Part shown: piece by piece, positions 3,833-24,192 of the stretch
Position numbering within the stretch: the first letter of the stretch is position 1
Layout of the letters: the number at the start of each line of letters is the position of its first letter
Assembly (NCBI GenBank): GCA_964617955.1
Contig: CAZTXB010000015.1
Span: 290-64,289 of the forward strand
Direction: 5' to 3'
Source of the DNA: an uncultured Chitinophaga sp.
Lineage (GTDB): Bacteria; Bacteroidota; Bacteroidia; NS11-12g; UBA9320
DNA: 64,000 bases
Program-made: the position numbers and the translations under genes
Notes under the pieces: model-generated
Databases searched by the model: none
What the model saw: only the letters and a program-made list of their open reading frames with translations
What the model was told of the DNA's origin: nothing

Positions 3833-3873
3833 TAGCCCCGACGGGAATCGAACCCATATCTAAAGTTTAGGAA
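3833..3873 (-). pseudogene. Displaced 3' half of host tRNA-Arg(CCT); left att junction
   Basis: Minus strand reads TTCCTAAACTTTAGATATGGGTTCGATTCCCGTCGGGGCTA (anticodon loop, T-arm, acceptor 3' strand); the sequence upstream only loosely resembles a 5' half and cannot form the acceptor stem. Confidence 0.85.
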
Positions 3874-3956
3874 GTCTTTATTTTATCCTTAATAACTTTT
3901 TCGTATCTATCTTAAAATCAATACAATTAAATTATTTTTAAAACACTCTAAAATTC

Positions 3957-4047
3957 AATTTGTGAGATATTTGTGAGACCAGAGTCATAATCTCGTTTTT
4001 TGTGAAGTTAATTTTCTATCCCAAAAATTGTGAGATTTTTTGTGAGG
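3957..4047. repeat. Putative integrase arm-type sites, left end
   Basis: AATTTGTGAGATATTTGTGAGAC at 3957-3979 is identical to 24019-24041; further TTGTGAG copies at 4028-4047. Confidence 0.7.
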
Positions 4048-4086
4048 TTTCTTAAAAAGAAAAATTAATAAATCCTTCTAAAATAC

Positions 4087-4161
4087 TGGTAGCCTCGGCG
4101 AGAATCGAACTCACATCAATTGTTTAGGAAACAACTATTCTATCCATTGAACTACGGGGCC
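4087..4161 (-). tRNA. tRNA-Arg(CCT), island-encoded, with encoded CCA
   Basis: GGCCCCGTAGTTCAATGGATAGAATAGTTGTTTCCTAAACAATTGATGTGAGTTCGATTCTCGCCGAGGCTACCA folds as a cloverleaf; anticodon CCT; one C-A mismatch in the acceptor stem. Confidence 0.92.
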
Positions 4162-4253
4162 GTTGATTTTCAGAGGTTTATATTCTGAAAATACTAAGTA
4201 CAAAGAAAGGGAAATTTAGGGAAATTATCTATCAAAGTTTTTGGGGATTTCCT

Positions 4254-4529
4254 TTAAAAATTTTGGTTTGCTTCACCTTTTAACCGTTCTATTTCGGAAG
4301 CATAAATTTGCCAGGAACATCCAGGGGCATCTTGCCTTGCTTTTAACTTCCCAATCAGGCACTTGTAGGCTATCGTTGAATATTTTATTCCGGTTATCTT
4401 GCCAAATTCTTTAGGAGAATAGAATTCTTTTGCATCCGATTTGCCATTAAGTATATCTTTTAACCTTGTAAAGATTCTTTTCTCCATTTCTGTTAGGTCA
4501 AATTTTGTAGCCAAATCTTCGAAATTCAT
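4254..4529 (-). CDS. Excisionase-like winged-HTH DNA-binding protein (HTH_17/MerR-like)
   Basis: 91 aa; FYSPKEFGKITGIKYSTI...GKLKA...W.I pattern typical of Xis/RDF proteins; lies at an island end. Confidence 0.7.
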   Translation of the reverse strand: MNFEDLATKFDLTEMEKRIFTRLKDILNGKSDAKEFYSPKEFGKITGIKYSTIAYKCLIGKLKARQDAPGCSWQIYASEIERLKGEANQNF

Positions 4530-4580
4530 TTCTTTTGTTGTTTGCTTTCAAAATTATCGCAAGTAATCCTTTTCCTAATA

Positions 4581-4622
4581 ACACCCCCCTGCCGTGAAAT
4601 AAAATCACGGCAGGACACCCCC
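4581..4622 (+). repeat. Palindromic site R1
   Basis: ACACCCCC-CTGCCGTGA(4589-4597)-AATAAAA-TCACGGCAG(4605-4613)-GACACCCCC. Confidence 0.9.
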
Positions 4623-4746
4623 GAATGGTATTATTGGAGTACACAGGTTTTACAGGGGTTTAGTTATCTCTCATTTTTTAAATTTATGGCAGGGGGGTGT
4701 GCGTTTATCTATTATTTGTAATTTGCACCCTATTCTTACCAAGGTT

Positions 4747-7158
4747 ATGCTGGATAAAAAAACCTTATCGGAACGAGATATTTGCACCAAATATATTACC
4801 CCGGCTATTCAATTGGCGGGGTGGGATATGCATACACAATTTTTGGAGGAAGTATCTTTTACGGATGGTAAAATATATGTTCGTGGCAGGCTGACATCCA
4901 GAGGTGAACGCAAGCGGGCTGATTACATTTTGTATTACAAACCCAACATTCCGATTGCCATTGTTGAAGCTAAGGATAATAATTATTCAGTAAGAGCTGG
5001 AATTCAACAAGCTTTGGATTATGCCAGGATTTTAGACATCCCTTGTGTTTTTAGCAGCAATGGGGATGGCTTTTTATTTCATGACAGAACAGCCACAGGT
5101 GAAAATATTGAAACTGAACTTGGAATTGATAAATTTCCAACACCGGAGCAGCTTTGGGAAAAGTATAAAAAGTATAAAGGTATCACTACACCTGAAGTTG
5201 AAAAAATAGCCGCACAGGATTATTATTTTGACGGCACAAGCCGCAAACCGAGATATTACCAGCAAATAGCGGTAAACCGGACAGTTGAAGCCATTGCCAA
5301 TGGCCAAAACAGGATTCTGTTAGTTATGGCAACAGGAACAGGAAAGACCTATACAGCTTTTCAAATAATTCACCGGCTATGGAAAAGTGGCGCAAAAAAA
5401 CGGATATTATTTTTAGCTGACCGAAACGCCTTGATTGACCAAACCCGGCGTAACGATTTTAAACATTTCAAGGATAAAATGACGGTTGTAAAAGACCGTC
5501 AGATTGATAAAAGCTATGAAATTTATTTGGCCTTGTATCAAGGTTTATCAGGCAATGACGAAGAGGCCAACGCTTACAAACAGTTTTCAAGAAACTTCTT
5601 TGATTTAATAGTAATTGATGAGTGCCATCGTGGAAGCGCAAAGGAAGATAGTAGTTGGCGGGAGATTTTAACTTATTTCCAAAATGCAACCCACATTTGT
5701 TTAACAGCCACGCCAAAAGAAACCGACACTGCCAGCAATACAGAATATTTTGGTGACCCTGTTTATACATATTCATTAAAGCAGGGAATTGATGATGGTT
5801 TCTTAGCTCCCTATCGTGTAGTAAGAATTGCCTTAAATATTGATGCCGAAGGCTGGCGACCGGAACAAGGCAAGACCGACAAAGATGGTAACGTAGTAGA
5901 AGACCGTATTTACAACCGTAAAGATTATGATAAAAGCCTTGTTATAGAGGAAAGAACCGATATTGTTGCCCAAAAACTGACCGAGTTTTTAAAAGGATAT
6001 GACCGATTTGCTAAAACCATTGTTTTTTGTGTTGACATTGACCACGCAGAAAGAATGAGAACCGCTTTAGCAAGGCACAATTCGGATTTAGTTGCCGGAA
6101 ATTATAAATACATCATGCAAATAACGGGGGATAATGATGAAGGAAAACGGGAGTTAGACAATTTTATAAACCCGGAAGAAAAATATCCGGTAATAGCAAC
6201 CACCTCCGAATTAATGACTACCGGAATTGACGCACAAACCTGCAAAGTAATTGTATTGGATGCCAATATCAATTCAATGACCAAGTTCAAACAAATTATA
6301 GGGCGTGGAACACGAATCAATGAAGAATACGACAAAATGTATTTTACAATTCTTGATTTCAGGAATGTAACGGATTTATTTGCCGATAAAGATTTTGATG
6401 GTGATCCAATTCGTGTAAAACCAATTTCGCAGGATGAAGATTTATCAATGCTTGTAATAGAAGAAGAAGAAAATACACTAACTGTTTTGGATGAAATAAG
6501 CGGTGAAGAAATTGTGTTTGAAAAAGCCAAAATTCGTTATCCGGATGGTTCGCAACCCTTTGGAAACTGGATTGCCAGAGAACCAAATAGTAACAGGGAA
6601 AAGGTAGTTGTAAATGGTGTAGATGTTTCTGTTTTGGTAAGCCGTGAATTGTATTTTGACCACCAGGGAAGACCCATCACGGTGAGTTTAAAAGACCATA
6701 CCAAAGAAATTATTACAGGCAAATATGCTTCTCTGGATGATTTTTTAACCCGGTGGAAAAATACGGAACGGAAAGAGGCCATCATCACGGAACTAATTGA
6801 ACAGGGTGTAATGGTGGAAGCCTTGTATGAAGCGGTGGACAAGCAGGTGGATTTATTCGACCTCATTTGTCATGTTGCTTATGACCAGCCACCTTTAACC
6901 CGAAAAGAAAGAGCCAACAATGTTAAGAAACGAAATTATTTTACAAAATATGGTGAAAAAGCCAAAAAGGTAATGGAAGCCTTGCTTGATAAATATGCGG
7001 ATGAAGGTATAACTAATATCGAAAACATTGAAGTATTGAGAGTAAACCCATTTGATGAGTTTGGTTCGCCAATAGAAATTATTAATGAGTTTGGTAGTAA
7101 AGAAAAATATTTGCAAGCGATCAAAGAATTAGAAACTGAGTTATATAAAACGGCATAA
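4747..7158 (+). CDS. hsdR: Type I restriction enzyme R subunit (EcoEI/EcoAI-like)
   Basis: SERDICTKYI N-terminus, AD...IVEAK nuclease motif, MATGTGKT, DECHRG and EcoEI-type C-terminus; ATG 4747 preferred over GTG 4699. Confidence 0.95.
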   Translation: MLDKKTLSERDICTKYITPAIQLAGWDMHTQFLEEVSFTDGKIYVRGRLTSRGERKRADYILYYKPNIPIAIVEAKDNNYSVRAGIQQALDYARILDIPCVFSSNGDGFLFHDRTATGENIETELGIDKFPTPEQLWEKYKKYKGITTPEVEKIAAQDYYFDGTSRKPRYYQQIAVNRTVEAIANGQNRILLVMATGTGKTYTAFQIIHRLWKSGAKKRILFLADRNALIDQTRRNDFKHFKDKMTVVKDRQIDKSYEIYLALYQGLSGNDEEANAYKQFSRNFFDLIVIDECHRGSAKEDSSWREILTYFQNATHICLTATPKETDTASNTEYFGDPVYTYSLKQGIDDGFLAPYRVVRIALNIDAEGWRPEQGKTDKDGNVVEDRIYNRKDYDKSLVIEERTDIVAQKLTEFLKGYDRFAKTIVFCVDIDHAERMRTALARHNSDLVAGNYKYIMQITGDNDEGKRELDNFINPEEKYPVIATTSELMTTGIDAQTCKVIVLDANINSMTKFKQIIGRGTRINEEYDKMYFTILDFRNVTDLFADKDFDGDPIRVKPISQDEDLSMLVIEEEENTLTVLDEISGEEIVFEKAKIRYPDGSQPFGNWIAREPNSNREKVVVNGVDVSVLVSRELYFDHQGRPITVSLKDHTKEIITGKYASLDDFLTRWKNTERKEAIITELIEQGVMVEALYEAVDKQVDLFDLICHVAYDQPPLTRKERANNVKKRNYFTKYGEKAKKVMEALLDKYADEGITNIENIEVLRVNPFDEFGSPIEIINEFGSKEKYLQAIKELETELYKTA

Positions 7159-7925
7159 TGGCTTTAATAGAAATTTCAGAAACACAACTTGCATTTGGCT
7201 ATTTACATTCCTACATCAATGTTTACAGACCAAGACGATTTATGCTTCCGTCCATTAGACAAGAAGGAGGAATGGTTCGTTTCCCTTACCCTGGGGCTGA
7301 CATAATTCTAAATTCCAACCATTTAATTCAATTTAAAAGACCATTCTATTTTACAACAAATGGAATTAAAGAGTTTTGGCATTTCTCAAAACCTACTGAC
7401 ATTGACCCACCATACTTTAGATTTTATATAAAAAACGATAATCCCACTAATCAACTTTCAAGTTTGGTTCGTGCAACTCAAAGCGGTTTATCTGCTGAAT
7501 ACATAAGTCCACTTTTTACAAACGAAACGGAATTTTTCAACTTAATGAGAAATGACCGAAGACATCTTGAAGCTTATGCTCATATTGACATTGCTCAATT
7601 TAGCGGAATGCTTAAAACAATCGGAAATAATAATGAACATACAATTATCTACAATCTACAATCAGTAGAAAACGATTTCTGTTACTGCTTTTCAGAACCA
7701 AAAAAAATAAAAGCGGAACAATATAAAGAGAATACAGTAATTAAATTTCAAGACCAAAATTTCAATGCTTCTGACATTGTAAAACTTATTCGTTCCATTT
7801 TCTTTCAGGAAGAAGATTTTTCATTTCAATCAGACAACACACTATATCAATGTCGTGTTTTACAGAACAGATTATTAGTTCAAAGAGACATTATTTGGCA
7901 TTTTAACTATATAATAAACAGATGA
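7158..7925 (+). CDS. Uncharacterised protein inserted between hsdR and hsdM; possible PD-(D/E)xK-like nuclease
   Basis: 255-aa ORF coupled by TAATG and ATGA overlaps; PSIRQEG..GADI...IQFKRP resembles an E..D..QxK nuclease core. Confidence 0.6.
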   Translation: MALIEISETQLAFGYLHSYINVYRPRRFMLPSIRQEGGMVRFPYPGADIILNSNHLIQFKRPFYFTTNGIKEFWHFSKPTDIDPPYFRFYIKNDNPTNQLSSLVRATQSGLSAEYISPLFTNETEFFNLMRNDRRHLEAYAHIDIAQFSGMLKTIGNNNEHTIIYNLQSVENDFCYCFSEPKKIKAEQYKENTVIKFQDQNFNASDIVKLIRSIFFQEEDFSFQSDNTLYQCRVLQNRLLVQRDIIWHFNYIINR

Positions 7926-9346
7926 GCAACTTATCAGGCATAATAAAATCTATCCGCAATGATATGCGTGAAGACCGTGGCGTAAGCGGTGACGGGCAAC
8001 GCATAGAGCAATTGGGCTGGATGCTATTCTTGAAAATATTTGACGACAAAGACAAGGAACTGGAATTGATGGACGAGAAATACAAATCGCCCATTCCCGA
8101 AAAATTTAAGTGGAGAAACTGGGCCGCCAACGATGAAGGCATGACAGGTGATGAACTTCTAACCTTTGTTGACCAGCAACTTTTCCCCACATTGAAAGAT
8201 CTTTCAGCCCTTGACCCACGGGCATACATGGTGCGTGAAGTGTTTGAAGGCAACAACAACTACATGAAAAGTGGCATCAACATTCGCAAGGTATTGAACA
8301 AGCTGAACGAAATTGATTTTAATAAAGCCAGCGAACGGCATTTGTTTGGGGAGATTTACGAAACCATTTTGCAGGAACTGCAAAGTGCGGGTGATTATGG
8401 TGAGTTTTACACACCACGAGCCGTTACACAATTTATTACCGACATCATCAATCCAAAATTAGATGAGAAAATTCTTGACCCGGCTTGCGGAACTGGCGGT
8501 TTCTTAACTTCTGCCATTGACCACTTAAAAAAGCAAACCAAGAACATTGACCAACGTAAAGCCATTCAAAAAAACATACAAGGTTGGGAATGGAAACCAT
8601 TGCCTTATGTATTGGCAACTACCAATTTGATTTTGCACGATATTGAATTACCTGACATTACTTATCGTGATGCTTTGGACAAACCTTTATCGGAATACAG
8701 AGAGAAAGACCGTGTCAATGTAATCATTGCCAATCCACCGTTTGGCGGCACGGTAGCCAACAACAACGAAAATAATTTTCCGCAAAACTATCGGGTAAAA
8801 GAAAGTGCCGACTTGTTTTTAATCTTGATGATACACTTGCTAAAGCAAGGAGGCAGAGCAGGAATTGTTTTGCCTGATGGAAGTTTGTCAGGTGATGGAG
8901 TTAAGCAACGTATTCGCCAAAAACTGTTGGAAGATTGCAACCTGCACACCATTATACGTTTGCCTAATTCTGTTTTCAAACCTTATGCAACCGTTGCAAC
9001 CAATCTTTTATTTTTTGACAAAGGGAAACCGACAAAAGACGTTTGGTATTATCAGCACAAATATCAGGAAGGGGTAAAATCCTATTCAAAAACCAATCCG
9101 CTTAAACTGGAAGAACTCGACCCAATTAAAACTTGGTGGAAGAAAAGAACTGAAAGCGAAGTGAGTTGGAAAGTTTCTATTGATACCATTATTGAACGGG
9201 GATATGACTTGGATATTAAAAATCCGAATGCTTTAGTAGAAGAAAGCGAGGAAACATCGAATGAAATACTTACAAGAATTGACACCGAGCAAAATAAAAT
9301 TCACGAAATAGTTGGCAAACTGAAAACACTTTTAGCAACTGAATGA
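7922..9346 (+). CDS. hsdM: Type I R-M methyltransferase
   Basis: GEFYTPR, motif I DPACGTGG, motif IV NPPF. Confidence 0.96.
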   Translation: MSNLSGIIKSIRNDMREDRGVSGDGQRIEQLGWMLFLKIFDDKDKELELMDEKYKSPIPEKFKWRNWAANDEGMTGDELLTFVDQQLFPTLKDLSALDPRAYMVREVFEGNNNYMKSGINIRKVLNKLNEIDFNKASERHLFGEIYETILQELQSAGDYGEFYTPRAVTQFITDIINPKLDEKILDPACGTGGFLTSAIDHLKKQTKNIDQRKAIQKNIQGWEWKPLPYVLATTNLILHDIELPDITYRDALDKPLSEYREKDRVNVIIANPPFGGTVANNNENNFPQNYRVKESADLFLILMIHLLKQGGRAGIVLPDGSLSGDGVKQRIRQKLLEDCNLHTIIRLPNSVFKPYATVATNLLFFDKGKPTKDVWYYQHKYQEGVKSYSKTNPLKLEELDPIKTWWKKRTESEVSWKVSIDTIIERGYDLDIKNPNALVEESEETSNEILTRIDTEQNKIHEIVGKLKTLLATE

Positions 9347-10635
9347 AATACCACCTGAAAAATATTTGCAGCATTACAAAAGGTGCTACGGGAATAATGA
9401 AAGCTGATGGGGGCAAATATCCTTTGGTGGCGCTGAGTGACGAACGTAGAAACCACAGCGAATATCAGTTTGACGTAAAGGCAGTGATTGTTCCGCTTAT
9501 CAGCAGCACAGGACACGGACATGCCAGTATGAAACGGGTTCATTATCAGGAAGGAAAATTTGCATTGGGGAATATTTTATGTGCTTTAATACCGAATGAT
9601 GAAACACAGCTGAATGCAAAATACCTGCACTTGTATTTGCAGCAATTTAAAGAAACTTTATTGGTGCCCTTGATGAAAGGCGCAGCCAATGTGAGTTTGC
9701 CAATGAACAAATTAGCTGAGGTAGAAATTGAAGTCCCAAGTTTAGAAAGACAGTTAGAAATAATTGAATTGGAAGAAGAAGCTGCCAAATACAAAAATGA
9801 ATTAGAAGAAAGATTGATTTTACAAGATGGTGACGTAGCAAAACTTCGTCAGGTATTGTTGAGAGAAGCCATGCAAGGCAAGTTGACAAAGCAAGATGCA
9901 AAAGATGAAAGTGCAAATGATTTGTTGGAGAACATAAGAGTTGAAAAGGATAAACTCATTGTAGCGAAAAAAATAAAACGAGAGAAAGAAATTGATGACA
10001 TTTCTGAGAGTGAAATTTCCTATTCAATCCCATCTAATTGGTGCTTGTGTCGTTTAGGTTCAATTGCTGAAACTGTAAATGATGGCGTTCACTATGCACC
10101 TAAATATTTGTCTTCGGGAATTCCTTCCTTATCTGCAAAGGATATTTTTAATAACAAAATAAATTTTGAAAAATGCAATTATGTAAGCATTGAAGAATAC
10201 AATTCTCAAAAAGAAAAATTCATGTTGAAAGTTGGAAGCGTTTTAGTGACGAAAAGTGGTAGCATTGGAAGAACCACAATTTATGATGGTTCAAGAGAAG
10301 TTTATTTAGTTGAGAGTGTTGGTGTAATAAATACAAATTCAAATTTCATAAATCCATCCTATGTTAAATATTTTATAGATAGCATTTTTGACAGCATCAC
10401 TTATGATGGCGAGCATGTTAAAGGAATGGGAGTAAAACATCTTACTTTGACACTAATAAAAAGAATGCAATTTCCACTTCCCCCATTTGCCGAGCAAAAC
10501 CGTATTGTAAAAAAGTTGGAGCAACTCATGCAACTCTGTAATGAATTGCAAAACAGCATACAGCAAAGCAAGATTGAAAATGAAAAATTATTGCTGGGGG
10601 CATTGAGGGACGCGTTGAAGAAAGAGGAAGTATAA
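9343..10635 (+). CDS. hsdS: Type I R-M specificity subunit
   Basis: Two TRDs with conserved P.LERQ / LPPFAEQNRIV spacers and LREAMQGKL..QD..DE region; coupled to hsdM. Confidence 0.93.
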   Translation: MKYHLKNICSITKGATGIMKADGGKYPLVALSDERRNHSEYQFDVKAVIVPLISSTGHGHASMKRVHYQEGKFALGNILCALIPNDETQLNAKYLHLYLQQFKETLLVPLMKGAANVSLPMNKLAEVEIEVPSLERQLEIIELEEEAAKYKNELEERLILQDGDVAKLRQVLLREAMQGKLTKQDAKDESANDLLENIRVEKDKLIVAKKIKREKEIDDISESEISYSIPSNWCLCRLGSIAETVNDGVHYAPKYLSSGIPSLSAKDIFNNKINFEKCNYVSIEEYNSQKEKFMLKVGSVLVTKSGSIGRTTIYDGSREVYLVESVGVINTNSNFINPSYVKYFIDSIFDSITYDGEHVKGMGVKHLTLTLIKRMQFPLPPFAEQNRIVKKLEQLMQLCNELQNSIQQSKIENEKLLLGALRDALKKEEV

Positions 10636-10644
10636 TTAAATATC

Positions 10645-12024
10645 ATGAGTATGACTATAGATACATCAAAAAACAATCTTTTCCTTGAAGGAGTTGATGA
10701 ATTAGCAAATTGGGAGATTGATAATAGGGGTATTCAGAAAATAAAAGTGCTTTTGAAAAGCTATCTGGAACTTGATAATGTGAGTTTTCTTTTCGGTGCA
10801 GGTTCTTCAATGAATATTGGTTCTGTTTCTATTGCAAATATTCCAACAAAAATTGAGGAGGCAATTAAAGCAACAAAAGTTGATATAGGTGGAAAACCAA
10901 CTCCTGGTTTATTATATGATGAATTTATTTCAATAATTAAAGATTTGCAATTAATAAAGGCTCCAGATATTGAAAAGAGAACTTCATCCAAAGAAATAGC
11001 ATACTCCCTCGAGAAATTATTGAACTATTTAGTTGCGCAAGAATATATACTTGACATTAATCCAAATGCGGCGCAGCATAAGCATCTTTTAGAGTTAGTA
11101 AGAATAATAAAACAAGGTCTATTTGAATTGTGTGATATTGAAAAATTGCCAAATGCAAGTTGGTTAGATGGTGATGAAAAAATAAATCTTGACAGAAATA
11201 AATCCTTCTACCACGAGAAGTTCACAAAGAAAATTTTGCAAAGACCTTTGAACTTGAAAAGAGCAAATGTCTTTACAACAAACTATGATTTATCATTTGA
11301 ATATGCTTTTGATAAGTTAGGAGTAAATTTTATTAGTGGCTTTTCAGGTTTTCAAAAAAGAACCTTTAAGCCCGAAGCATTTGAGTATGATTTATTTTTC
11401 CCAGGCTCAACAACACAAGGTAGAGTTCAAAGAATAGAGAAGGTTTTACGTTATTACAAAATTCACGGGTCGCTTACCTGGGTAAAAGAACAACCTTCTG
11501 AAAATAATGTTTATGGAATTTCAGAAGTACCAATAGAAATTGTCCGTGAGAAGAAAGATTATGAGAACATCATGATTTATCCAACCACTGCAAAAAAATC
11601 ATTCACTTTAGATTTTCCATATTCTGAATTATTCCGCCAATTTGCAGCCACAATTTCCCAACCTCAATCAGTTTTAATTACATTTGGTTACTCATTCAGC
11701 GATGAACACATAAATGATATTATTTATCAGGCGCTAACAATTCCTTCTTTTACATTAATTATAATTGACTTTAACGGGACAAATGAGAAAGACCCTTCCA
11801 ACATCAATAAGGAAATTAAGAAGCTGAAAGATTTGAAGGACCCACGGGTTGCAATTTTGCAGGGAGAACAACTTGGTAGTTTTTCATTTTTTGTCGAACA
11901 ACTTTTACCGGACCTGATTGAAGTAAATACTTATGAAAGAATTGCTGAAACATTGAAAAAGCTTTTCGGGAAAGATGATACTCCCCCGGCAACTATAAAA
12001 ACCACCTCCGCACCGGCACCATGA
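10645..12024 (+). CDS. SIR2-like (SIR2_2) NADase, Sir2-HerA antiphage effector
   Basis: FLFGAGSS, FTTNYD, YKIHGS, GYSFSDEHIN motifs; overlaps the HerA gene. Confidence 0.88.
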   Translation: MSMTIDTSKNNLFLEGVDELANWEIDNRGIQKIKVLLKSYLELDNVSFLFGAGSSMNIGSVSIANIPTKIEEAIKATKVDIGGKPTPGLLYDEFISIIKDLQLIKAPDIEKRTSSKEIAYSLEKLLNYLVAQEYILDINPNAAQHKHLLELVRIIKQGLFELCDIEKLPNASWLDGDEKINLDRNKSFYHEKFTKKILQRPLNLKRANVFTTNYDLSFEYAFDKLGVNFISGFSGFQKRTFKPEAFEYDLFFPGSTTQGRVQRIEKVLRYYKIHGSLTWVKEQPSENNVYGISEVPIEIVREKKDYENIMIYPTTAKKSFTLDFPYSELFRQFAATISQPQSVLITFGYSFSDEHINDIIYQALTIPSFTLIIIDFNGTNEKDPSNINKEIKKLKDLKDPRVAILQGEQLGSFSFFVEQLLPDLIEVNTYERIAETLKKLFGKDDTPPATIKTTSAPAP

Positions 12025-15538: not shown

Positions 15539-15553
15539 CCGATAAGCTTATAG

Positions 15554-16306
15554 ACAATCGCAACAGAAAAATTAAATATAGCCAAACTTCAAAAGCACTT
15601 CAAAGGCAAAAGCACTTTTGCTAATCGTGACATTGTTAATTTTTATCAGGAATTTGAACCATCCTTAAAAATTAGCACCGTCAATTGGAGAGTTTATGCA
15701 TTAATAAAATTAGGTATCCTTTCACGAATAGGCAGAGGAAAATTTACTTTGGGAAAAGAAAAAAACTTTGTTCCACAGGTTGAAGCAAAAATAAAAACCC
15801 TCTATAAAAAACTAAATAAACATTTTCCATATCTTCAAATCTGTATTTGGCATACTTCAATTCTTAATGAATTTATGCTTCATCAACCAGGTAGATTTTA
15901 TATCCTTGTTGAAGCAGAAAAGGATGCAATGGAAAATATTTTTTATTTTCTCAAGGAAAATAAAACCAATGTCTTTATTGACCCTACTTTTGGTATCCTT
16001 AGCCGCTATTCTTCAGATGAGAAAGAAACAATCATTGTAAAACCTTTGGTATCAGAAGCACCTATTCAGCGTTTGGAAGGAGTATGGACTATCACTATTG
16101 AAAAAATGCTGGTAGACATTTTTTCTGATGAAATAATTTTCGCAGCTCAACAAGGGGGAGAATTGCAACACATTTTTAATGAAGCTTTCATAAGATACAC
16201 TATAAACGAAAGCAGAATGCTTCGCTATGCAAACAGGAAAAGAAAAAAAGAAAGTTTTAATAATTATTTAAATAAAGTTTCAATATTTCGGCAGCAAACT
16301 AAATAA
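15554..16306 (+). CDS. AbiEi-like antitoxin / wHTH regulator (DUF6577-like)
   Basis: Frame is open from 15554 and includes TVNWRVYALIKLGILSRIGRGKF upstream of the tracked TTG at 15749; IEKMLVDIF motif; no in-frame ATG at the 5' end. Confidence 0.7.
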   Translation, partial: TIATEKLNIAKLQKHFKGKSTFANRDIVNFYQEFEPSLKISTVNWRVYALIKLGILSRIGRGKFTLGKEKNFVPQVEAKIKTLYKKLNKHFPYLQICIWHTSILNEFMLHQPGRFYILVEAEKDAMENIFYFLKENKTNVFIDPTFGILSRYSSDEKETIIVKPLVSEAPIQRLEGVWTITIEKMLVDIFSDEIIFAAQQGGELQHIFNEAFIRYTINESRMLRYANRKRKKESFNNYLNKVSIFRQQTK

Positions 16307-16327
16307 AATGCCGTTTTATAGTGCACT

Positions 16328-17389
16328 ATGATAGACAAAAATACACTCACGCATCAATGGATTGATAACGTTTCCAAAACAAACCGCAATGCTGATAAAA
16401 TTCTTGTAGAGAAAGTTATCCGAGCCTTATTGTTATTGGAAGGCTTAAGCAATATAGGTTTGTCATTTGTTTTTAAAGGTGGCACCGCATTAATGCTGCT
16501 AATGGATTCAGCAAAACGTTTGTCTATTGACATTGATATTATTATTTCTAAAACACCTGAAAATTTAGAAGAGATGATGCAGGAAGTTGGCAAAAATCAA
16601 GGTTTCAACAAAGTGGAACTACAACATCGCCATACTGCCTCTGAAATTGAAAAAGCACACTACAAATTTTTCTATACTCCAGTTCACCAAACTCACACAG
16701 GTGATGATTATGTCTTGCTTGACATTCTTTTTGAGGCAAATAATTATAGCAATGTTTCTTTGCATCCTCTCAAATCAATATTCGTCAGCAACACGGGTAC
16801 TCTGGCTCAAATACAAATGCCATCATTAGAAGATTTATTAGGCGATAAACTCACAGCCTTTGCCCCATACACCACCGGTATTCCTTATTTGCGAAATGAA
16901 AACAGCATGAGTATGGAAATCATCAAACAACTTTATGATATCGGAAACCTTTTTGATGCCGTAAATGATTTAAGTCTAATAAAAGAAACATACCATAAAA
17001 TTGTAAACGTAGAAATTAAATATCGCAAGCTTGCAGGAGTTTTGCCCTCCCAGGTTTTAGAAGATACTTACCAGACAGCCCTGTGCATTTCGCTTCGTGG
17101 CAGTGATGGTGTAGGAGATTTTAATGAATTACAAAAAGGCATACAGCGCATCAGAGGTTTTATATTTTCAGAAACTTATCATTTAGAAAAAGCGATTACT
17201 CACGCTGCTAAAGCAGCTTATCTGTCAAGGCTTATTTCAAGGGATCAAACCACATTTGAAAAATATGTTGACCCAAAACAAGTTGCTGATGCTACCATTT
17301 TAGCTCCTCATAATACCAGGCTACAAAGATTTAAAAGAACAAACACCGAAGCGTTTTTCTATTGGTGGAAAGCATCTCAACTATTTTAA
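16328..17389 (+). CDS. abiEii: AbiEii-family nucleotidyltransferase toxin (type IV TA)
   Basis: FKGGTALML..RLSIDIDI, DKLTAF and KQLYD motifs. Confidence 0.88.
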   Translation: MIDKNTLTHQWIDNVSKTNRNADKILVEKVIRALLLLEGLSNIGLSFVFKGGTALMLLMDSAKRLSIDIDIIISKTPENLEEMMQEVGKNQGFNKVELQHRHTASEIEKAHYKFFYTPVHQTHTGDDYVLLDILFEANNYSNVSLHPLKSIFVSNTGTLAQIQMPSLEDLLGDKLTAFAPYTTGIPYLRNENSMSMEIIKQLYDIGNLFDAVNDLSLIKETYHKIVNVEIKYRKLAGVLPSQVLEDTYQTALCISLRGSDGVGDFNELQKGIQRIRGFIFSETYHLEKAITHAAKAAYLSRLISRDQTTFEKYVDPKQVADATILAPHNTRLQRFKRTNTEAFFYWWKASQLF

Positions 17390-18119: not shown

Positions 18120-18182
18120 AAGTGCAATGGGTATTCAGGGCAAGACAGGATTCGTTAATTTTCAAAATCAATTAGTACTTAA

Positions 18183-18290
18183 ACCACTCCCCTGCCGTGA
18201 AATAAAATCACCGGCAGGACACCCCCCTGCAAAACGCCAAAAATACCGGTGAATATGGCTTTTTAAAGATTTATGACGTTAAAAATTAGA
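18183..18290 (+). repeat. Palindromic site R4 plus tail
   Basis: ACCACTCCC-CTGCCGTGA-AATAAAA-TCACCGGCAG (1-nt insertion)-GACACCCCCC, then the conserved tail. Confidence 0.88.
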
Positions 18291-18376
18291 AAAATTATGA
18301 GTTTTTACTACGTGATATAAAATTTAACCCTTAATTTGAAGGAGATATCTAATCCACGATAAAGGAGTATCTACAA

Positions 18377-19210
18377 ATGCTAAACGCCACTCCAACCTAC
18401 ATAAAACAGTTACTAATATTTTTCGGACTTGCATACATTATTTCCTGGATAATTTGGTTGCCATTATATGGACATATTTTCGGACTGACCAATTTGCCAG
18501 TAATACCTTTCAATCATGCCATTGGTGGGTTGGGGCCTTTAATCGCGTCCTTTTTAGCTACCTGGATTTTACTTAAAAAAGATGGAGTCAAAAAACTCTT
18601 AGTAAAGTGTTTTCAAATTAAACCGATTACATATTTAGCAATTGCATTGTTCAGTCCTTTTATTCTTGCTTTCATTGCATCTGTGATTAGTTATTTCATC
18701 AACAAGACTTCAATCAACATTTTGGGACTTCTTACAACAAAAGAATTTCCGCAATGGAACTTACTCACTTTTTTCTTTTACAATCTCATATTTTTTGGAT
18801 TTGGTGAAGAAGTTGGTTGGCGTGGGTTTGCATTACCACGACTGCTAAACAAATCAAACGCATTGATCGCAAGTATTCTGCTGACATTGTTTTGGGCTTT
18901 GTGGCATGTGCCGTTATTTTTTTACAGACCAAGTTACACGACAATGGACTGGATGGGTATTTTGGGTTGGGTTTTTAGTTTGCTGACAGGAAGTATTTTG
19001 TTGACATGGTTATATAACTCAGCGAAAGCAAGCATTTTAATTTGCGCTGTTTTCCATTCTACCATCGACATTGCATTTACTGCTGACATTGCCGACAAAA
19101 ATATTATGAACTACATGGGATTTTTAATAACCGTTTGGGGAATCTTGATAATAATTATTTTTAAACCAAAGTATTTATCACGGCAACAATCAACGACATT
19201 GATAAACTAA
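18377..19210 (+). CDS. CPBP (CAAX protease/Abi domain) intramembrane metalloprotease
   Basis: Multiple transmembrane segments; EEVGWRG, WALWH and FH motifs. Confidence 0.88.
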   Translation: MLNATPTYIKQLLIFFGLAYIISWIIWLPLYGHIFGLTNLPVIPFNHAIGGLGPLIASFLATWILLKKDGVKKLLVKCFQIKPITYLAIALFSPFILAFIASVISYFINKTSINILGLLTTKEFPQWNLLTFFFYNLIFFGFGEEVGWRGFALPRLLNKSNALIASILLTLFWALWHVPLFFYRPSYTTMDWMGILGWVFSLLTGSILLTWLYNSAKASILICAVFHSTIDIAFTADIADKNIMNYMGFLITVWGILIIIIFKPKYLSRQQSTTLIN

Positions 19211-19311
19211 TTATGAATAATCACTTCTAAAAACAATTTGTTTGGACTGATTAACTGCACATAACACACAGATTAAAAGAAATCTTTTTAAAAAGGGTTT
19301 TTGTTTGATTA

Positions 19312-19415
19312 ACCACTCCCCTGCCGTGAAATAAAAATCACGGCAGGACACCCTCCTGCAAAACTCTGAAAACACCGGGGAATATGGCTTTTTAACGATT
19401 TATGACTTTAAAAGT
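19312..19415 (+). repeat. Palindromic site R5 plus tail
   Basis: ACCACTCCC-CTGCCGTGA-AATAAAAA (8 nt)-TCACGGCAG-GACACCC, then CTGCAAAACTCTGAAAACACCGGGGAATATGGCTTTTTAACGATTTATGAC. Confidence 0.88.
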
Positions 19416-19479
19416 GATAATTTTTAGTCCCTAATGGAGAGGGAAGTTAAAAAAGTGTGATTACTCCTTTTAAAATAAT

Positions 19480-19824
19480 TTATTTTTTAAGTTCATACGC
19501 TTCTCTGAGCCAGGTGAGAAGTTCTTTATCAATATCTTTTTCACCTACAAGCTTAATGGTATGATGAAAGCGGTTTGCTGATGCTTGCTCCACTTTGCTA
19601 ACCCTTTCGCTTGTGAGCTTGTAGTTTAAATGTACTTCTAAGTTGATGTAGTCTTTGCGTGTATAAACTCCAGCGAAACCAAACCGATTACCTAAATGAA
19701 TGCTTGTCTTGTTCGGTTCGATTTTTAGTTGTCCCAACTTTTGCAATTCGGCGACGAGCTTTTCGTAAATATTTGTAACAACTTTTTCTTTTCCAGTTAG
19801 ATGGTCATGTTCTGTATAGTTCAT
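19480..19824 (-). CDS. DUF5655-like small protein
   Basis: 114 aa; KTSIHL...FAGV...N.FHH.I.L..EKDID.ELL.WL.EAY pattern. Confidence 0.7.
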   Translation of the reverse strand: MNYTEHDHLTGKEKVVTNIYEKLVAELQKLGQLKIEPNKTSIHLGNRFGFAGVYTRKDYINLEVHLNYKLTSERVSKVEQASANRFHHTIKLVGEKDIDKELLTWLREAYELKK

Positions 19825-19830
19825 TTTTCT

Positions 19831-20358
19831 TTATTTAGAGTTAGGTAGTAATTTTTTTAATGCTGCCTGATAAATCTTTTTGATTGCGTTGTCAGGGTCG
19901 CCCTTAATAATTGCTTCGATTGCCGGAACTAAATCTTTGTTGTGTTTGGTTTTTAGCTTTACAATTTCTCCTAATGCAAATGCGGCACTCCATCTTACCA
20001 CCGTGCCCGAATATTCTGTATTCGTTAAAAGGTTGCTTATTGCCTTGTCCAACTTGTTAGGATAAAGATGTGCAATGTTACCAATAACTTTTGCTGATTC
20101 CCATTTTACTCTTGGTGCTTCGTGAGTCAAAGTTTCTGTAACAAAGTCAAGACAAGCTGAAGATGCAATGTCGGGTTGGTTTCTTGTTGCAAATTCAAGG
20201 GCTTCAATGCAGGTTCCTTTCTCTTTGTCTTTGGAAACCTTGGCAACTTTCAGCAGCTCATCAATGCTGACTTTTTTGTCGAGCAACATTTTGCTGATTG
20301 CTTCAACTTTAGGTTTTGCTTTAAGCTGCTTGTCAGTAATAATTGTTTGTATGTCCAT
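19831..20358 (-). CDS. HEAT-repeat protein
   Basis: Helical repeats VKWESAKVIGNIA and VRWSAAFALGEI. Confidence 0.7.
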   Translation of the reverse strand: MDIQTIITDKQLKAKPKVEAISKMLLDKKVSIDELLKVAKVSKDKEKGTCIEALEFATRNQPDIASSACLDFVTETLTHEAPRVKWESAKVIGNIAHLYPNKLDKAISNLLTNTEYSGTVVRWSAAFALGEIVKLKTKHNKDLVPAIEAIIKGDPDNAIKKIYQAALKKLLPNSK

Positions 20359-20402
20359 GTCGCTGCGGGAATCTTAATTGCTTTTTTCGAGATGAATAAA
20401 TT

Positions 20403-21023
20403 TCAATTTTTTAATTCATTTCGTTTGAAGGAGCAAAATAAAAAATTCTGTGTTGTGTTGAACGGCGTTATATGATCTTCCGTTATACACTTTATTTTTT
20501 GAAAACCATTTTGCAACTGTTGTTGCAATTCCTCTTCGGTGTATTGATGAACATCAAGCATACTGCATTTCTTTGGCCCTTTGTCGGAGAAGGTTCCTAT
20601 TACCATAAAACCTTTTACCGCTTTTCTTGCAGTTGTTATATAACTATTCATATCACTTGAACCAGTGAGAAAATGAAAAGTAGCCCTATCGTGCCAACAG
20701 TCATAAGTTGAAGCAGGATTAAATTCCGTTACATCGCTTACAATCCAATTTACGTTTTTAGCCTTGTCGCCAAGTCTATACTTAGCTCTTTCAATTGCTT
20801 TCTCTGAAATATCAAGCACAGAAATATTTTCAAAACCCTCATCAAGTAAATAATCAACTAATTTGCTGTCGCCACCTCCAATATCAATAATACTTGCTGA
20901 TTTTGGAAGATTAAAACTATGTACAAAGTCCAAAGATGTTTTAGGTAGTTCTTGTGTCCAGCTTACTTTGTGGGGCAGTTTATTTTCATAAACTCTTTCC
21001 CAATGTTCTTTTCTTGTTTCCAT
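20403..21023 (-). CDS. Class I SAM-dependent methyltransferase
   Basis: IIDIGGGDS motif I, VLDIS, WHDRATFHF. Confidence 0.88.
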   Translation of the reverse strand: METRKEHWERVYENKLPHKVSWTQELPKTSLDFVHSFNLPKSASIIDIGGGDSKLVDYLLDEGFENISVLDISEKAIERAKYRLGDKAKNVNWIVSDVTEFNPASTYDCWHDRATFHFLTGSSDMNSYITTARKAVKGFMVIGTFSDKGPKKCSMLDVHQYTEEELQQQLQNGFQKIKCITEDHITPFNTTQNFLFCSFKRNELKN

Positions 21024-21026
21024 TAT

Positions 21027-22436
21027 TTATTGTGTTGGTAATTTATAATCAATACCGAAATATTTGGCATAGTCCTCAATAGGTTGGAGCCCTACTTTTT
21101 TTCGCCGGATGTTTACATTTTTTTCATCTTCTATTGGATAAAACTCCTGCCCTCCGGTTTTATTAAATACAACCTGCGAACCATAAATTTGTTTTTTTCC
21201 TTCTCGCATTAAAATTCGGTCTTGCATCATTGCCATATCGCTGGCTTTTGATTCACCTTCCTCAACTGATTGTTGAAACAAAGGAAAATATTTTTTCTGA
21301 GTAGCCAAGTCTGCATGTTGAATCACAAGAAAAAATGCCTGATTATATCCTTCTCCAACCAAACTTTTCCCCATCCAACCGTATTTTTCAATAAGGGTTG
21401 TTATCTGCACCTGGTTACAACTGTCGATGTAATGCATAAACTTAGCCGAATCGCCATGTGCCCTTGTTTTTTGGTCTCTTTCGTAAATTGCTTTTAATTC
21501 CTTTTTTATTGCCTTCAAATCAAAATTGTCTTTAACCATTTCAGAGGCAGTAACAGTTTTGGTATAATACATTGCTTTGTAAGGATATGTTGTTTTAGCA
21601 GACATAAGCATCACATATTTATCAAAATTTAAAGTAGTATCAAAATCATTAATCGGCCTGTCCAGTTTTCTTTCTTCAAGTCCATGTCCAAAATCCGCGC
21701 GGCAAGTACCTTTTAAATAGTAATTACCAATGGTGCAGATTTTAGCAGATAGATTTAATTCCTGATCCTTTTTTAGATATGATGCCATTTTCTTTTCAAA
21801 AGGAGAAATCAATGCATGAGCATTACCACTAAGCGTTACCTTTTTCCATTTCGGATGCAACTGAATTTGATTTTTTATTTTCAAATACATAATGCTATCT
21901 CTTTCATATATTTTCCCATCACCTTCATTCCTGTCAAAGAAAAAAAGTTGAACCTTCGGGTTGTTTTTCAAATGCGAAATAATACTTGCCCATGCAAAGG
22001 ATTGCCGTCCATCAAGAATTGGAAGATCATAAAAAAAATGACTTTGATAAATGCTGCTATCAGTATGTGATGAAATATAATTTGTCGTTTTCTCTGATGG
22101 TATTTCCAAACCAACAGAAACGCTGTCGCCTTTGCCGGTCAGAAGATTTGTTAAACCTATTACAAACTGTGCAGATTCATTTGTGCCATGCATTTCTCCT
22201 ATCATTAGGATTTGAAAAGGGGAAAGAAGATTATAAACTGAATCACTTAGCAAGTATGGGTTCTCAACTTTTACGGCATTTGCTTTAAGATATGCTGTAT
22301 TATTTTGTCCTCTCGTATTTATGAAAGTAAGTGATAAGAAAAACAGGGGTAAATATTTTTTGACAACAAATGAAGTTCGCCATTTGTCAAAAAGATTTAT
22401 AGATGTGAATGAGCTGTTTAAAGTTTGAATAACCAT
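21027..22436 (-). CDS. Secreted two-domain protein (N-terminal esterase/ChaN-like, C-terminal DUF6624-like)
   Basis: Signal-like segment; IGEMHGT motif; C-terminal FLVIQHAD, MMQDR...QIYGSQ and P.EDE.NVN.RR..VGL motifs. Confidence 0.6.
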   Translation of the reverse strand: MVIQTLNSSFTSINLFDKWRTSFVVKKYLPLFFLSLTFINTRGQNNTAYLKANAVKVENPYLLSDSVYNLLSPFQILMIGEMHGTNESAQFVIGLTNLLTGKGDSVSVGLEIPSEKTTNYISSHTDSSIYQSHFFYDLPILDGRQSFAWASIISHLKNNPKVQLFFFDRNEGDGKIYERDSIMYLKIKNQIQLHPKWKKVTLSGNAHALISPFEKKMASYLKKDQELNLSAKICTIGNYYLKGTCRADFGHGLEERKLDRPINDFDTTLNFDKYVMLMSAKTTYPYKAMYYTKTVTASEMVKDNFDLKAIKKELKAIYERDQKTRAHGDSAKFMHYIDSCNQVQITTLIEKYGWMGKSLVGEGYNQAFFLVIQHADLATQKKYFPLFQQSVEEGESKASDMAMMQDRILMREGKKQIYGSQVVFNKTGGQEFYPIEDEKNVNIRRKKVGLQPIEDYAKYFGIDYKLPTQ

Positions 22437-22511
22437 AATATCTATTTCACAAATCTATATTTTTTTTGAAAGTACTAAAGCAAGTTGCCTTTTCATCAAA
22501 TGATTAGAGAT

Positions 22512-22560
22512 ACCACCCCCCTGCCGTGCAATAAAATCACGGCAGGGCACCCCTCTGCCG
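22512..22560 (+). repeat. Palindromic site R6 (no tail), just downstream of the integrase stop codon
   Basis: ACCACCCCC-CTGCCGTGC-AATAAAA-TCACGGCAG-GGCACCCCTCTGCCG. Confidence 0.88.
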
Positions 22561-22600
22561 CAAAGTGACTCGTTCTGAAATACCTATCACAAATCAATAT

Positions 22601-23983
22601 TTATAAATTATATACAAAATTCGTTGAACAAAACGGGCATTCTATTGGAATTTTGTTCAACTTAATAATGTTCTTTTCAAATTTCATCACGGTATTTTCG
22701 CAAGAAGGACAGTTTACCTGAATTTCTTTTTCATTGGATTCTTCTTTAATTAACATATCCCACTTATCCATGTGTTTATCCCTTAATTCATCTACCACTT
22801 TGGCATAACGTTGGGTTGTTGTTAATTCAGAATGGCCCAAAATATCACTTACTACCTCTATTGGTACTCCCAACAATAGTGAACTTACTGCAAACGTGTG
22901 CCTGGAACAATGGAATGTAATATGCTTTTTAATATTTGTGTGATCTTGAATAATGGCTTTAAGATATTTATTTGTTTGAGCGTCCTCCATAACAGGATTA
23001 TCAAAAACCAAGCCGCCGGGGTTTGATAGGTCAAGCAGCAATAAAATCCTTTTTCTCAAGGGTATTCTCACCGTTTTTTTTCTGTCCAACCGGCCTTTCT
23101 GCATTTCTTTAACAATATAATTACCCTGAATATCTTTACTATTTAGGGTTTTTATATCTGAATGGCGGAGGCCGCAATAGCACGCCACCAAAAAATAGCG
23201 CAAGATTTCCTGGTATCTTTGGCCTACGGCAAATTCTTTGTATTTGGCATATTTACTTTCAGATTTTCTAACAATTTTCAATAATTTTTTACTGTCATAA
23301 AGTTTTTGCAGCTCATTAATTTCATCCGGTACTAAATGTTGAACTTCTGAAAAATGAGGCTGGCCAACGGTATAGTCCGAAAACGGGTATTTTGTTAATT
23401 TTCCCTGGTCAAATAGTTTTTTAGTGTATTTGCGAAGAAACACAAGGTCGTTATAAATGGTATTTTTTGATAGCTTTAATTCTTCACTCAAATACGTTTG
23501 AAACTTATCCAGAAATACCTTGTTTACTTCGTGAATTGAAAGTTTTGATCTAAAATCTTTAAGATGCTTTAATTTAGCTAAATATCCTTTTATGGTCGAC
23601 GGACTGATTTTGGTGAATTTTTTCTCATAGTCGATCGTCTGTTCAATAAAATCAAATAGGCTTATGGATTTTTCTTTCCCTGTTCGGGATATATAAACTT
23701 CTTTGACCCTGTTAGGAGTAATTATTTCCTGCTTTTTCTCAAAATCCTCGACAATAGTATCAATAATGCCTTTTTGTCTAACTATAAATGCATTGGTTGT
23801 ACCAAATCCCGTTATCCCAGCTTTAACACATTTATTTATTTCATCATAATGAATCCTTTTTATTCTTTTTCCAAGATTTATATAGTCATGTTCACCATTT
23901 ATAGAAACCCTTAAAAGCATAGGGATCATTCCATCTTTACCAACATGATGTGTTTTGCAATCAAAACTAACGGTATATCTCAT
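22601..23983 (-). CDS. int: Tyrosine integrase (Bacteroidota arm-binding type) with C-terminal Cys4 extension
   Basis: N-terminal arm-binding LLRVSING segment; catalytic R (GLRHSD), HxxR (FHCSRH), H (LGHS) and Y (QRYAK); tail CPSC-x21-CPFC. Confidence 0.93.
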   Translation of the reverse strand: MRYTVSFDCKTHHVGKDGMIPMLLRVSINGEHDYINLGKRIKRIHYDEINKCVKAGITGFGTTNAFIVRQKGIIDTIVEDFEKKQEIITPNRVKEVYISRTGKEKSISLFDFIEQTIDYEKKFTKISPSTIKGYLAKLKHLKDFRSKLSIHEVNKVFLDKFQTYLSEELKLSKNTIYNDLVFLRKYTKKLFDQGKLTKYPFSDYTVGQPHFSEVQHLVPDEINELQKLYDSKKLLKIVRKSESKYAKYKEFAVGQRYQEILRYFLVACYCGLRHSDIKTLNSKDIQGNYIVKEMQKGRLDRKKTVRIPLRKRILLLLDLSNPGGLVFDNPVMEDAQTNKYLKAIIQDHTNIKKHITFHCSRHTFAVSSLLLGVPIEVVSDILGHSELTTTQRYAKVVDELRDKHMDKWDMLIKEESNEKEIQVNCPSCENTVMKFEKNIIKLNKIPIECPFCSTNFVYNL

Positions 23984-24018
23984 TATTTTTCAAATTTGTT
24001 CAGCGAAGATACAAAATA

Positions 24019-24041
24019 AATTTGTGAGATATTTGTGAGAC
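24019..24041. repeat. Putative integrase arm-type site, right end
   Basis: 23-bp exact match to 3957-3979. Confidence 0.7.
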
Positions 24042-24152
24042 GAAATCGTAAATTCAAGAGATTTATCTCTAAAATATCCAAAAACGTAAAATAAAAACTA
24101 TTGATTTATAGATATTTACGGATTGTGTCTGGTTTGCAAAGTAGGGAGAAAT

Positions 24153-24192
24153 GTTTAGGAAACTTCTATTCTATCCATTGAACTACGGGGCC
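24153..24192 (-). pseudogene. 5' half of host tRNA-Arg(CCT); right att junction
   Basis: GGCCCCGTAGTTCAATGGATAGAATAGAAGTTTCCTAAAC followed by non-tRNA island sequence; joins 3833-3864 to give a fully paired 72-nt tRNA. Confidence 0.88.

Follow-up and report, generated by a model that had tools for sequence, protein, structure and literature searches.

Islands that insert into tRNA genes as a rule carry sequence that regenerates the target tRNA (PMC4383910, PMC9897764). The locus described here lies in a stretch of 64,000 nucleotides from an uncultured Chitinophaga sp. (contig CAZTXB010000015.1, positions 290 to 64,289 of the forward strand; this whole 64-kb stretch is called the window below and is numbered from its first nucleotide), in which a 20.3-kb island, 3874-24152, interrupts the host tRNA-Arg(CCT) gene within the anticodon loop and an intact tRNA-Arg(CCT) gene is present inside the island. 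The best reading of this arrangement, and one in which we have considerable confidence, is integration that does not restore its target, combined with complementation in trans by the island tRNA-Arg(CCU). The phenomenon is real and family-wide; its principle has already been published (PMC10865867) and is extended here to the Bacteroidota and to an element without recognisable phage genes.

The host tRNA-Arg(CCT) gene is split and neither junction restores it

The features of the window that define the two junctions are the following.

3833-3864, minus strand: displaced host tRNA-Arg(CCT) 3' half (read from the sequence; gives a paired tRNA when joined to 24153-24192)
3865-3873, minus strand: attR core, 9 bp, TTCCTAAAC on the tRNA strand (exact repeat)
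3874-4086, minus strand: P arm of attP, on the side away from the integrase gene; CTCACAAW repeats in two pairs, 3959-3977 and 4027-4046
22601-23983, minus strand: tyrosine integrase gene (Pfam Arm-DNA-bind_5, SAM_5 and catalytic domain; PHROG integrase; alignment)
23984-24152, minus strand: integrase-proximal attP arm (P' arm), with one arm-type repeat pair, 24020-24039, and no tRNA 3'-half sequence
24153-24192, minus strand: host tRNA-Arg(CCT) 5' half, including the attL core at 24153-24161 (read from the sequence; ARAGORN)
24232-24239, minus strand: promoter-like motif TTAATTTG of the split host gene (read from the sequence)

An exact repeat search finds GTTTAGGAA exactly three times in the window, at 3865-3873, 4122-4130 and 24153-24161, the second of these being the anticodon loop of the island tRNA. 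The 9-bp core comprises the 7-nt anticodon loop plus 2 nt, and the identity between attL and attR stops at both of its edges. The displaced 3' half runs from the 3' strand of the anticodon stem through the variable loop and the T arm to the acceptor 3' strand and the discriminator, and the host terminator hairpin lies downstream of it. When the host flanks are joined over one core, ARAGORN reports a fully paired 73-nt tRNA-Arg(CCT). Neither junction is itself a tRNA, and both hold fragments only: ARAGORN calls no tRNA at attL and calls only the island copy in the attR region, and Rfam gives, besides that intact copy, no tRNA-like match with E ≤ 1 between 3500 and 24500. The P' arm is without T arm or acceptor sequence, and the sequence common to attP and attB is TTCCTAAAC only. 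A 20-mer, CTCACAAATATCTCACAAAT, is identical at 3958-3977 and 24020-24039, and of eight CTCACAAW matches in the whole window six belong to the ends of the island, without exception on the minus strand; we read these repeats as putative arm-type integrase sites on either side of attP.

The split is not an assembly artefact, because an independent Logan contig crosses attL (L071; contigs and loci used for comparison are given such numbers throughout) and the attR structure is seen again in five other assemblies (L073-L076 and L078). Chance is excluded because 21 of 22 related integrases adjoin an unrepaired tRNA-Arg(CCT) 5' half (see below). The cores are short: that of the window has 9 bp, that of L022/L060 has 16 bp and that of L068 has 10 bp. 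The tRNAs reconstructed from the latter two islands (read at L022 ~9795 with L060 ~8830-8866, and at L068 ~19030 with 7410-7440) have one mismatch each, at acceptor pair 4:69 (G.G and A.A, respectively), which would fit decay of split halves that have been freed from selection; the perfect reconstructed host tRNA of the window would fit a recent insertion.

An empty site was sought by means of the two flanking host proteins, and this gave only contigs that bear the island or break at it. In the Logan assembly of SRR7369912 the island contig ends at 24182, 30 nt into the common sequence counted from the first core base, 24153, and the host-side contig begins at 24160, not at 24153 (contigs L003 and L072). 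These breaks fit a branch of the assembly graph at the core and thus suggest, possibly, a population in which some sites are occupied and others empty; a break at this point also fits a recent insertion.

The island carries an intact tRNA-Arg(CCT) gene beside its attachment site

Three further features make up, with the P arm, the left end of the island.

4087-4161, minus strand: island-borne intact tRNA-Arg(CCT) (ARAGORN; Rfam 60.1 bits)
4201-4208, minus strand: promoter-like motif TTTCTTTG (read from the sequence; 7 of 8 positions match the Bacteroidota -7 element TAnnTTTG)
4254-4529, minus strand: 91-amino-acid helix-turn-helix protein (weak PHROG matches; PF12728 HTH_17 in one homologue)

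The island gene is the only tRNA that ARAGORN calls in the 64 kb, and its Rfam score compares with a gathering score of 29. Its first 27 nt are the same as those of the host gene, and the leaders of the host gene and the island copy, GAATATCAAT and GAAAATCAAC, respectively, are similar. The two genes differ in the anticodon stem (host GAAGT/ACTTT, island GTTGT/ACAAT) and in the T stem (host ATGGG/CCCGT, island GTGAG/CTCGC), and CCA is encoded by the island copy only. An earlier note on this DNA, made from the sequence alone, had described the host halves as rebuilding a fully paired tRNA with neither junction complete, and the island copy as intact, with 27 identical 5' nucleotides, a similar leader, a compensated anticodon stem, a different T arm and an encoded CCA; ARAGORN, Rfam and a reading of the sequences bear out this description, and the assembly artefact that it named as a danger is answered by L071 and the five other assemblies.

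The motif TTTCTTTG ends 39 nt upstream of the island tRNA and the host motif TTAATTTG is spaced identically, so that a T-T-n-n-TTTG motif ending 39 nt ahead of the tRNA is found in both upstream regions. Over the 60 nt upstream, the island and host genes are identical at 34 of 60 positions (shuffles give 18.4 +/- 3.4). TTTCTTTG is a putative promoter. Since its upstream region is homologous to that of the host gene, the island gene was apparently acquired together with its promoter, the source being a chromosome related to that of the present host. The tRNA is 214 bp from the core. The module made up of the Xis-like (helix-turn-helix) gene, the tRNA, the arm and the core occurs with 96-97% identity in at least three host contexts, and none of the 34 variable alignment columns among these copies falls within the 75-nt tRNA, where ~3.5 would be expected. 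In PHROG the 91-amino-acid protein weakly matches a Cox-like excisionase and a DNA-binding protein (E ~5e-4 to 8e-4), and it is a possible excisionase or directionality factor. Its homologues were tried as a marker of far ends and proved unreliable; those of L062 and L060 stand at the start of a primase module instead.

The target is left unrepaired throughout the integrase family

The integrase has the Bacteroidota-type three-domain architecture Arm-DNA-bind_5 / Phage_int_SAM_5 / Phage_integrase (Pfam), and its catalysis is predicted. When one genome from each species was scanned with an aligned set of integrase homologues, 22 loci with a full-length integrase relative (46-94% identity) were found, and one more that is truncated at a contig end. 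Cultured organisms are represented among them by Fulvivirga imtechensis AK7, Fulvivirga sp. M361 and Marivirga lumbricoides CGMCC 1.10832, and the family is also present in the closed metagenome-assembled chromosomes OZ271834.1 and OZ253939.1. At 21 of the 22 loci a tRNA-Arg(CCT) 5' half ending in TTCCTAA lies upstream of the integrase gene in the same direction, and the gap between the two is 148-205 nt in the 20 loci matched by script; in the window the host 5' half is likewise co-oriented with the integrase gene, whose start is 170 nt downstream. No T-loop motif follows the core in the 20 script-tested loci, and ARAGORN calls no tRNA-Arg at the junction position in the 22 relatives. The 5' half is host DNA, because host tRNA-Asn or tRNA-Lys genes are found just upstream of it in some loci.

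Across the family the attL/attR identity consists of TTCCTAA and 2-9 flanking bp, and in L006, L007, L010 and L017 it ends directly after the loop (e.g., TTCCTAAT). The crossover thus falls in the 7-nt anticodon loop, within the symmetric anticodon stem, which places these sites in the anticodon-loop sublocation class of tRNA integration sites, a class reportedly set out by Williams in 2002. The one exception is L011 (~7700-7968, 55% identity), which has the arm-type repeat and no tRNA 5' half found upstream; it may be a secondary site or a mis-binned contig. We note that this contig is labelled Candidatus Saccharibacteria and that TTTTGCCTAAAC is found roughly at the expected core position. 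IMG/VR contains neither the far-end pattern nor relatives of the integrase, and the integrases found in phage and plasmid collections are just 22-32% identical to it (annotated Bacteroides, Phocaeicola, Flavobacterium and Cellulophaga integrases).

As a result of the insertion the host motif TTAATTTG is now directed into the island, toward the integrase gene, and by read-through the orphaned host tRNA promoter could drive integrase expression in the integrated state. The orphaned promoter region and 5' half are always co-oriented with the integrase gene (window 24192-24239; L004-L026), and there is no tRNA 3' end or terminator between this 5' half and the integrase gene.

Far ends with a tRNA, far ends without one, and locked forms

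The opposite ends of these elements were searched for in metagenomes as an arm-type repeat, followed 65-95 nt later by TTCCTAA and then by a T loop, the island tRNA not being required. This gave 15 contigs, 13 of them distinct. An intact tRNA-Arg(CCT) lies 50-330 bp inside the arm in six of the 13 (the other seven are weighed below). About 11 distinct elements are now known to carry their own tRNA-Arg(CCT); every tRNA inside these elements is Arg(CCT), and in most of them it stands beside attP, not among the cargo.

Two more islands were followed from end to end by walking from homologues of the small helix-turn-helix protein. L022+L060 is ~29 kb long and looks like a phage or a satellite, an S24 repressor and a VapE-type primase being encoded in L060; L068/L069 is ~11.6 kb long. 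Each has the 5' half, the integrase gene, an internal tRNA-Arg(CCT), the arm and the 3' half. Three other elements (L063/L066, L009/L062 and L010) appear as locked forms, in which a divergent intact tRNA-Arg(CCT) lies downstream of the integrase gene (L063 6221-6293; L062 8782-8854, which is L009 20886-20958; L010 10254-10326) and the far arm-type site and host 3' half were not found; in L063, L009/L062 and L010 this foreign copy is the sole intact tRNA-Arg(CCT) found at the locus. A partial tRNA-Arg(CCT) is also present at the contig end of L008 (15549-15577), 4.2 kb downstream of the integrase gene; its orientation is opposite to that of the host 5' half, whereas the copies of the other elements are co-oriented with the host gene.

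The far ends L050, L055 and L048/L054 have near-identical arms, with a tRNA in L050 and none in the others. The divergence of L055 from L050 starts exactly at the 3' end of the tRNA, a truncated transposase-like open reading frame (ORF) abuts the arm in L048/L054, and the hairpin downstream of the L050 island tRNA is similar to the hairpin that follows the host tRNA of L054. An Rfam match of 31.9 bits at the L050 attR junction and an ARAGORN call at the L052 junction had raised the suspicion that the far attP arm is a decayed tRNA 5' half; this was dropped after a shuffle test on 16 distinct arms (z ≤ 2), only 3-6 nt beside the loop being common to the far arms and the tRNA 5' half.

The island tRNAs keep the tRNA fold

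Eleven of the 12 island copies tested score 59-71 bits with Rfam. The remaining one, L049 1443-1517, matches only in part, with 34.9 bits; its acceptor stem pairs poorly, positions 31 and 39 form an A31.C39 mismatch, and it may be defective and possibly decaying. Among nine distinct island tRNAs, 98.9% of the pair cells are standard pairs, all slid controls being far lower, and 13 of the 21 pairs are changed on both sides. As judged from this alignment, the island tRNAs keep their cloverleaf through compensatory changes. The earlier note took such changes to indicate selection for function; the covariation is indeed strong, and it shows that the copies come from a line of functional tRNAs, but need not reflect selection that acted within the island. 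AGG is used 7.2 times per 1000 codons in host genes and 5.5 times in island genes, and makes up 19% of host Arg codons; since its use in the island is below that of the host, the copy would serve host demand and not the codon bias of the island.

A model for the replacement tRNA, and its alternatives

In the model that we favor, the ~20.3-kb island would insert by tyrosine-integrase recombination inside the anticodon loop of the host tRNA-Arg(CCT) gene, leaving that gene as two dead halves 20 kb apart, and would bring with it an entire tRNA-Arg(CCT) gene together with a promoter-like region for it. Because only 214 bp separate the island tRNA from the core, the excised circle would hold the tRNA, attP and the integrase gene in one compact module of ~2.1 kb. 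Once integrated, the island copy would supply tRNA-Arg(CCU) in trans and offset the cost of the lost host gene. It would raise fitness without being essential, as tRNA-Arg(UCU) also reads AGG and some family members are without a copy. In E. coli tRNA-Arg(CCU) (argW) is dispensable, tRNA-Arg(UCU) also reading AGG (PMC4652775), and by analogy it is probably dispensable wherever the latter holds; the existence of tRNA-less members fits because of this second reader. The copy is therefore plausibly helpful but not obligatory, and offsets a cost rather than rescuing the host from lethality.

This reading is built on the observed anatomy of the island, its recurrence in the family, the structural conservation of the island tRNAs and the homology of promoters and leaders. 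Several points weigh against it. Seven of the 13 distinct far ends have no tRNA in the available sequence, up to 14 kb, so the copy is not required for carriage and complementation is not obligatory. The island tRNA of the window has one non-standard pair, C5.A68, in its acceptor stem. The dispensability of tRNA-Arg(CCU) is known for E. coli and would have to extend to the Bacteroidota, and the expression, aminoacylation and fitness effect of the island tRNA are predicted. With these points included, the proposal of the earlier note that the element complements in trans holds for non-restoring integration, for replacement by a tRNA of the same anticodon and for recurrence in the family; it does not hold as a new alternative to restoration, such an arrangement having been described before (PMC10865867).

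It is improbable, in our judgment, that the split is near-neutral, tRNA-Arg(UCU) reading AGG, with an island tRNA that hitch-hikes as a remnant of its capture from a former host and brings no present benefit. The tRNA-less far ends, the near-identical far ends with a tRNA (L050) and without one (L055, L048/L054), the dispensable argW of E. coli (PMC4652775) and the acceptor-stem mismatch of the window copy all speak for such a remnant. It would leave unexplained why ~11 distinct elements have this anticodon and no other, why the cloverleaf is kept through 13 double-changed pairs, and why the tRNA has no variable sites where its flanks have 34; moreover, AGG is not rare in the host, and at the loci L063, L009/L062 and L010 no intact tRNA-Arg(CCT) was found apart from the island copy.

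We give equally little weight to the idea, put forward in the earlier note, that selection has recoded the anticodon stem of the island tRNA and in this way keeps the integrase from targeting the copy. Recombination between the copy and the nearby core would harm the element, by deletion of the attP arm or by self-insertion, and the island anticodon stem is unlike that of the host in 11 of the 11 elements in which both can be read; no island tRNA has GAAGT, the stem of ~60% of the targeted hosts. Random pairing of stems, however, gives an expectation of only ~0.9 matches against the zero seen, with a rough chance of none of ~0.27, which is not significant. The copy has lost no part of the core and matches attB over 11 bp, GTTTCCTAAAC, more than the 9-bp core that attP and attB have in common. 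The flanks of attP and attB are, in addition, allowed to differ a great deal: 5' of the loop the window attP has AAGAC, which matches the host GAAGT at one of five positions, as against three of five for the island GTTGT, and the corresponding flanks of L068 are GCAGT and AGCGT, so that attP and attB of one element differ more from each other than the copy differs from attB. Island stems such as AGCGT are also host stems that other family members target. A protective role of the stem changes is thus unsupported, and capture from a different but related host explains them more simply.

Much less likely still is a tRNA carried as cargo for some other purpose, either to serve the codon usage of the island or to replace a tRNA cleaved by an anticodon nuclease in a phage-host conflict. 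The island is rich in defence genes, and phage tRNAs have been proposed to counter tRNA-cleaving defences (PMC10865867, discussion); against this, AGG is rarer in island genes than in host genes, the isotype is always that of the gene which the element destroys, and the tRNA mostly lies beside attP and not among the cargo. Finally, the thought that an older or a tandem element restored a junction and so left the intact tRNA, or that the split is an artefact of assembly, draws on the copy being only 220 bp from the displaced 3' half, a spacing like that of a very short remnant island, and can practically be dismissed, as both strands of the copy's anticodon stem differ from those of the host and so exclude a loop hybrid, the 220-bp spacer contains the arm-type 20-mer of the integrase side, a tandem element leaves the 5' half at 24153-24192 unexplained, and independent assemblies and three host contexts show the junctions again.

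Relation to known integration systems

Enterobacterial prophages such as Sf6 and KpLE1/CPS-53 reside in argW (tRNA-Arg CCU) and so target the same tRNA species; they restore the gene and have integrases of other families.

Canonical islands of the Islander type (PMC4383910, PMC9897764) resemble the window island in the site-specific insertion into a tRNA gene by a tyrosine integrase, in having the integrase gene by the tRNA end and in the displaced tRNA fragment at the far end. They differ from it in that their attP carries the displaced part of the gene and one junction regenerates the tRNA, whereas here neither does.

The closest parallel is tRNA-dependent lysogeny, which was shown experimentally in actinobacteriophages by Guerrero-Bustamante and Hatfull (mBio 2024, PMC10865867), with Fionnbharth/K4, cluster L, Cain, Gaia, BrutonGaster, OneUp and Mollymur as examples. 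Fionnbharth and other actinobacteriophages have a core of 8-17 bp in common with attB and do not rebuild the tRNA; the cognate tRNA that they carry is required for viable integration, and relatives without a tRNA exist, e.g., Daredevil (PMC10865867). The Lactobacillus johnsonii prophage Lj965, which differs from the present elements in being a single case and a Firmicutes prophage, is known here through its citation in that paper as a further case.

Both systems have a tyrosine integrase (catalysis being predicted here), arm-type sites flanking attP and an attB within a host tRNA gene; both have a short core (9, 10 and 16 bp here) and no tRNA at either junction; in both the element carries the cognate tRNA (4087-4161 in the window, and ~10 further distinct elements); and tRNA-less relatives occur in both (Daredevil there, seven far ends here). 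By its sequence, then, the element has the three sequence-level characteristics of tRNA-dependent lysogeny. The differences are also considerable. The elements described here are from the Bacteroidota, and their integrase family is unrelated to those of the actinobacteriophages at the level of the searches made. The window island does not present itself as a temperate phage, no phage genes having been detected among the ORFs searched and its cargo being defence genes. Its target, tRNA-Arg(CCU), is probably dispensable, whereas the actinobacteriophage targets are essential single-copy tRNA-Lys, Ile2 or Leu genes. Twenty-one of the 22 relatives sampled here have a non-restoring junction and in none is the tRNA rebuilt, whereas restoring and non-restoring phages are interleaved in the actinobacteriophage tree. 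The tRNA is usually directly beside attP here, and dependence on it was shown by experiment there, the present case being known from sequence. Strict necessity of the element tRNA after integration is argued against here by the seven tRNA-less far ends of 13 and by the dispensable argW of E. coli.

Implications

The authors of the 2024 study state that the prevalence of tRNA-dependent lysogeny outside the actinobacteriophages is unknown (PMC10865867), and the present family bears on that question from another phylum. It comprises a whole Bacteroidota integrase family that is non-restoring, in cultured Fulvivirga and Marivirga as well as in many environmental genomes, and at least one of its elements is without recognisable phage genes. 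Island finders that need a regenerated tRNA and a displaced fragment are expected to mis-map such elements, and tRNA gene counts in the genomes that carry them mix dead halves with foreign copies. The compact module of tRNA, attP and integrase gene is a design for Bacteroidota integration vectors, comparable to the Fionnbharth plasmids that need the phage tRNA, and the natural variants with and without a tRNA make the cost of losing a "dispensable" tRNA directly testable.

A broader generalization can be offered tentatively, and we think it rather more doubtful than the complementation model itself: that this whole integrase lineage is committed to splitting tRNA-Arg(CCU) genes without repair, with a replacement tRNA that is optional and exchangeable, with locked forms, and with an orphaned promoter that possibly drives the integrase. 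If this were true, locked derivatives would be a route for the horizontal replacement of a core translation gene.

Other features of the island

The G+C content is ~34% within 3874-24152 and ~42% outside. Between the helix-turn-helix gene and the integrase gene lie the following cargo genes, and it is on this cargo that the label "defence island" rests.

4699-10635, plus strand: type I restriction-modification (Pfam, PADLOC)
4699-7158, plus strand: hsdR
7158-7925, plus strand: ORF without an assigned role
7922-9346, plus strand: hsdM
9343-10635, plus strand: hsdS
10645-14153, plus strand: SIR2-HerA defence pair, SIR2 at 10645-12024 and HerA at 12021-14153 (Pfam, PADLOC)
15749-17389, plus strand: AbiE toxin-antitoxin/abortive-infection pair, AbiEi-like DUF6577 at 15749-16306 and AbiEii at 16328-17389 (Pfam, PADLOC)
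18377-22436, no single strand given: other cargo, namely an Rce1-like protease, DUF5655, a HEAT-repeat protein, an S-adenosylmethionine (SAM) methyltransferase and DUF6624 (Pfam)

The PADLOC E-values of the SIR2 and HerA proteins are 1.7e-100 and 1.2e-184, respectively. Within the subset of island ORFs that was searched, there are no capsid, portal, terminase, tail or other phage structural genes, and no replication or transfer genes. An Rfam match to ohsC_RNA at 11236-11297 (E = 0.46) was set aside as chance. The 136-amino-acid ORF at 15135-15545 matches the QueC (PP-loop ATPase) profile over the first 64 of its 210 positions only, and looks like a truncated gene within the island. The integrase family also has a nearly invariant C-terminal CxxC...CxxC tail (C425, C428, C449 and C452 in the homologue alignment; 22601-22740 in the window), which in its sequence looks like a zinc ribbon.

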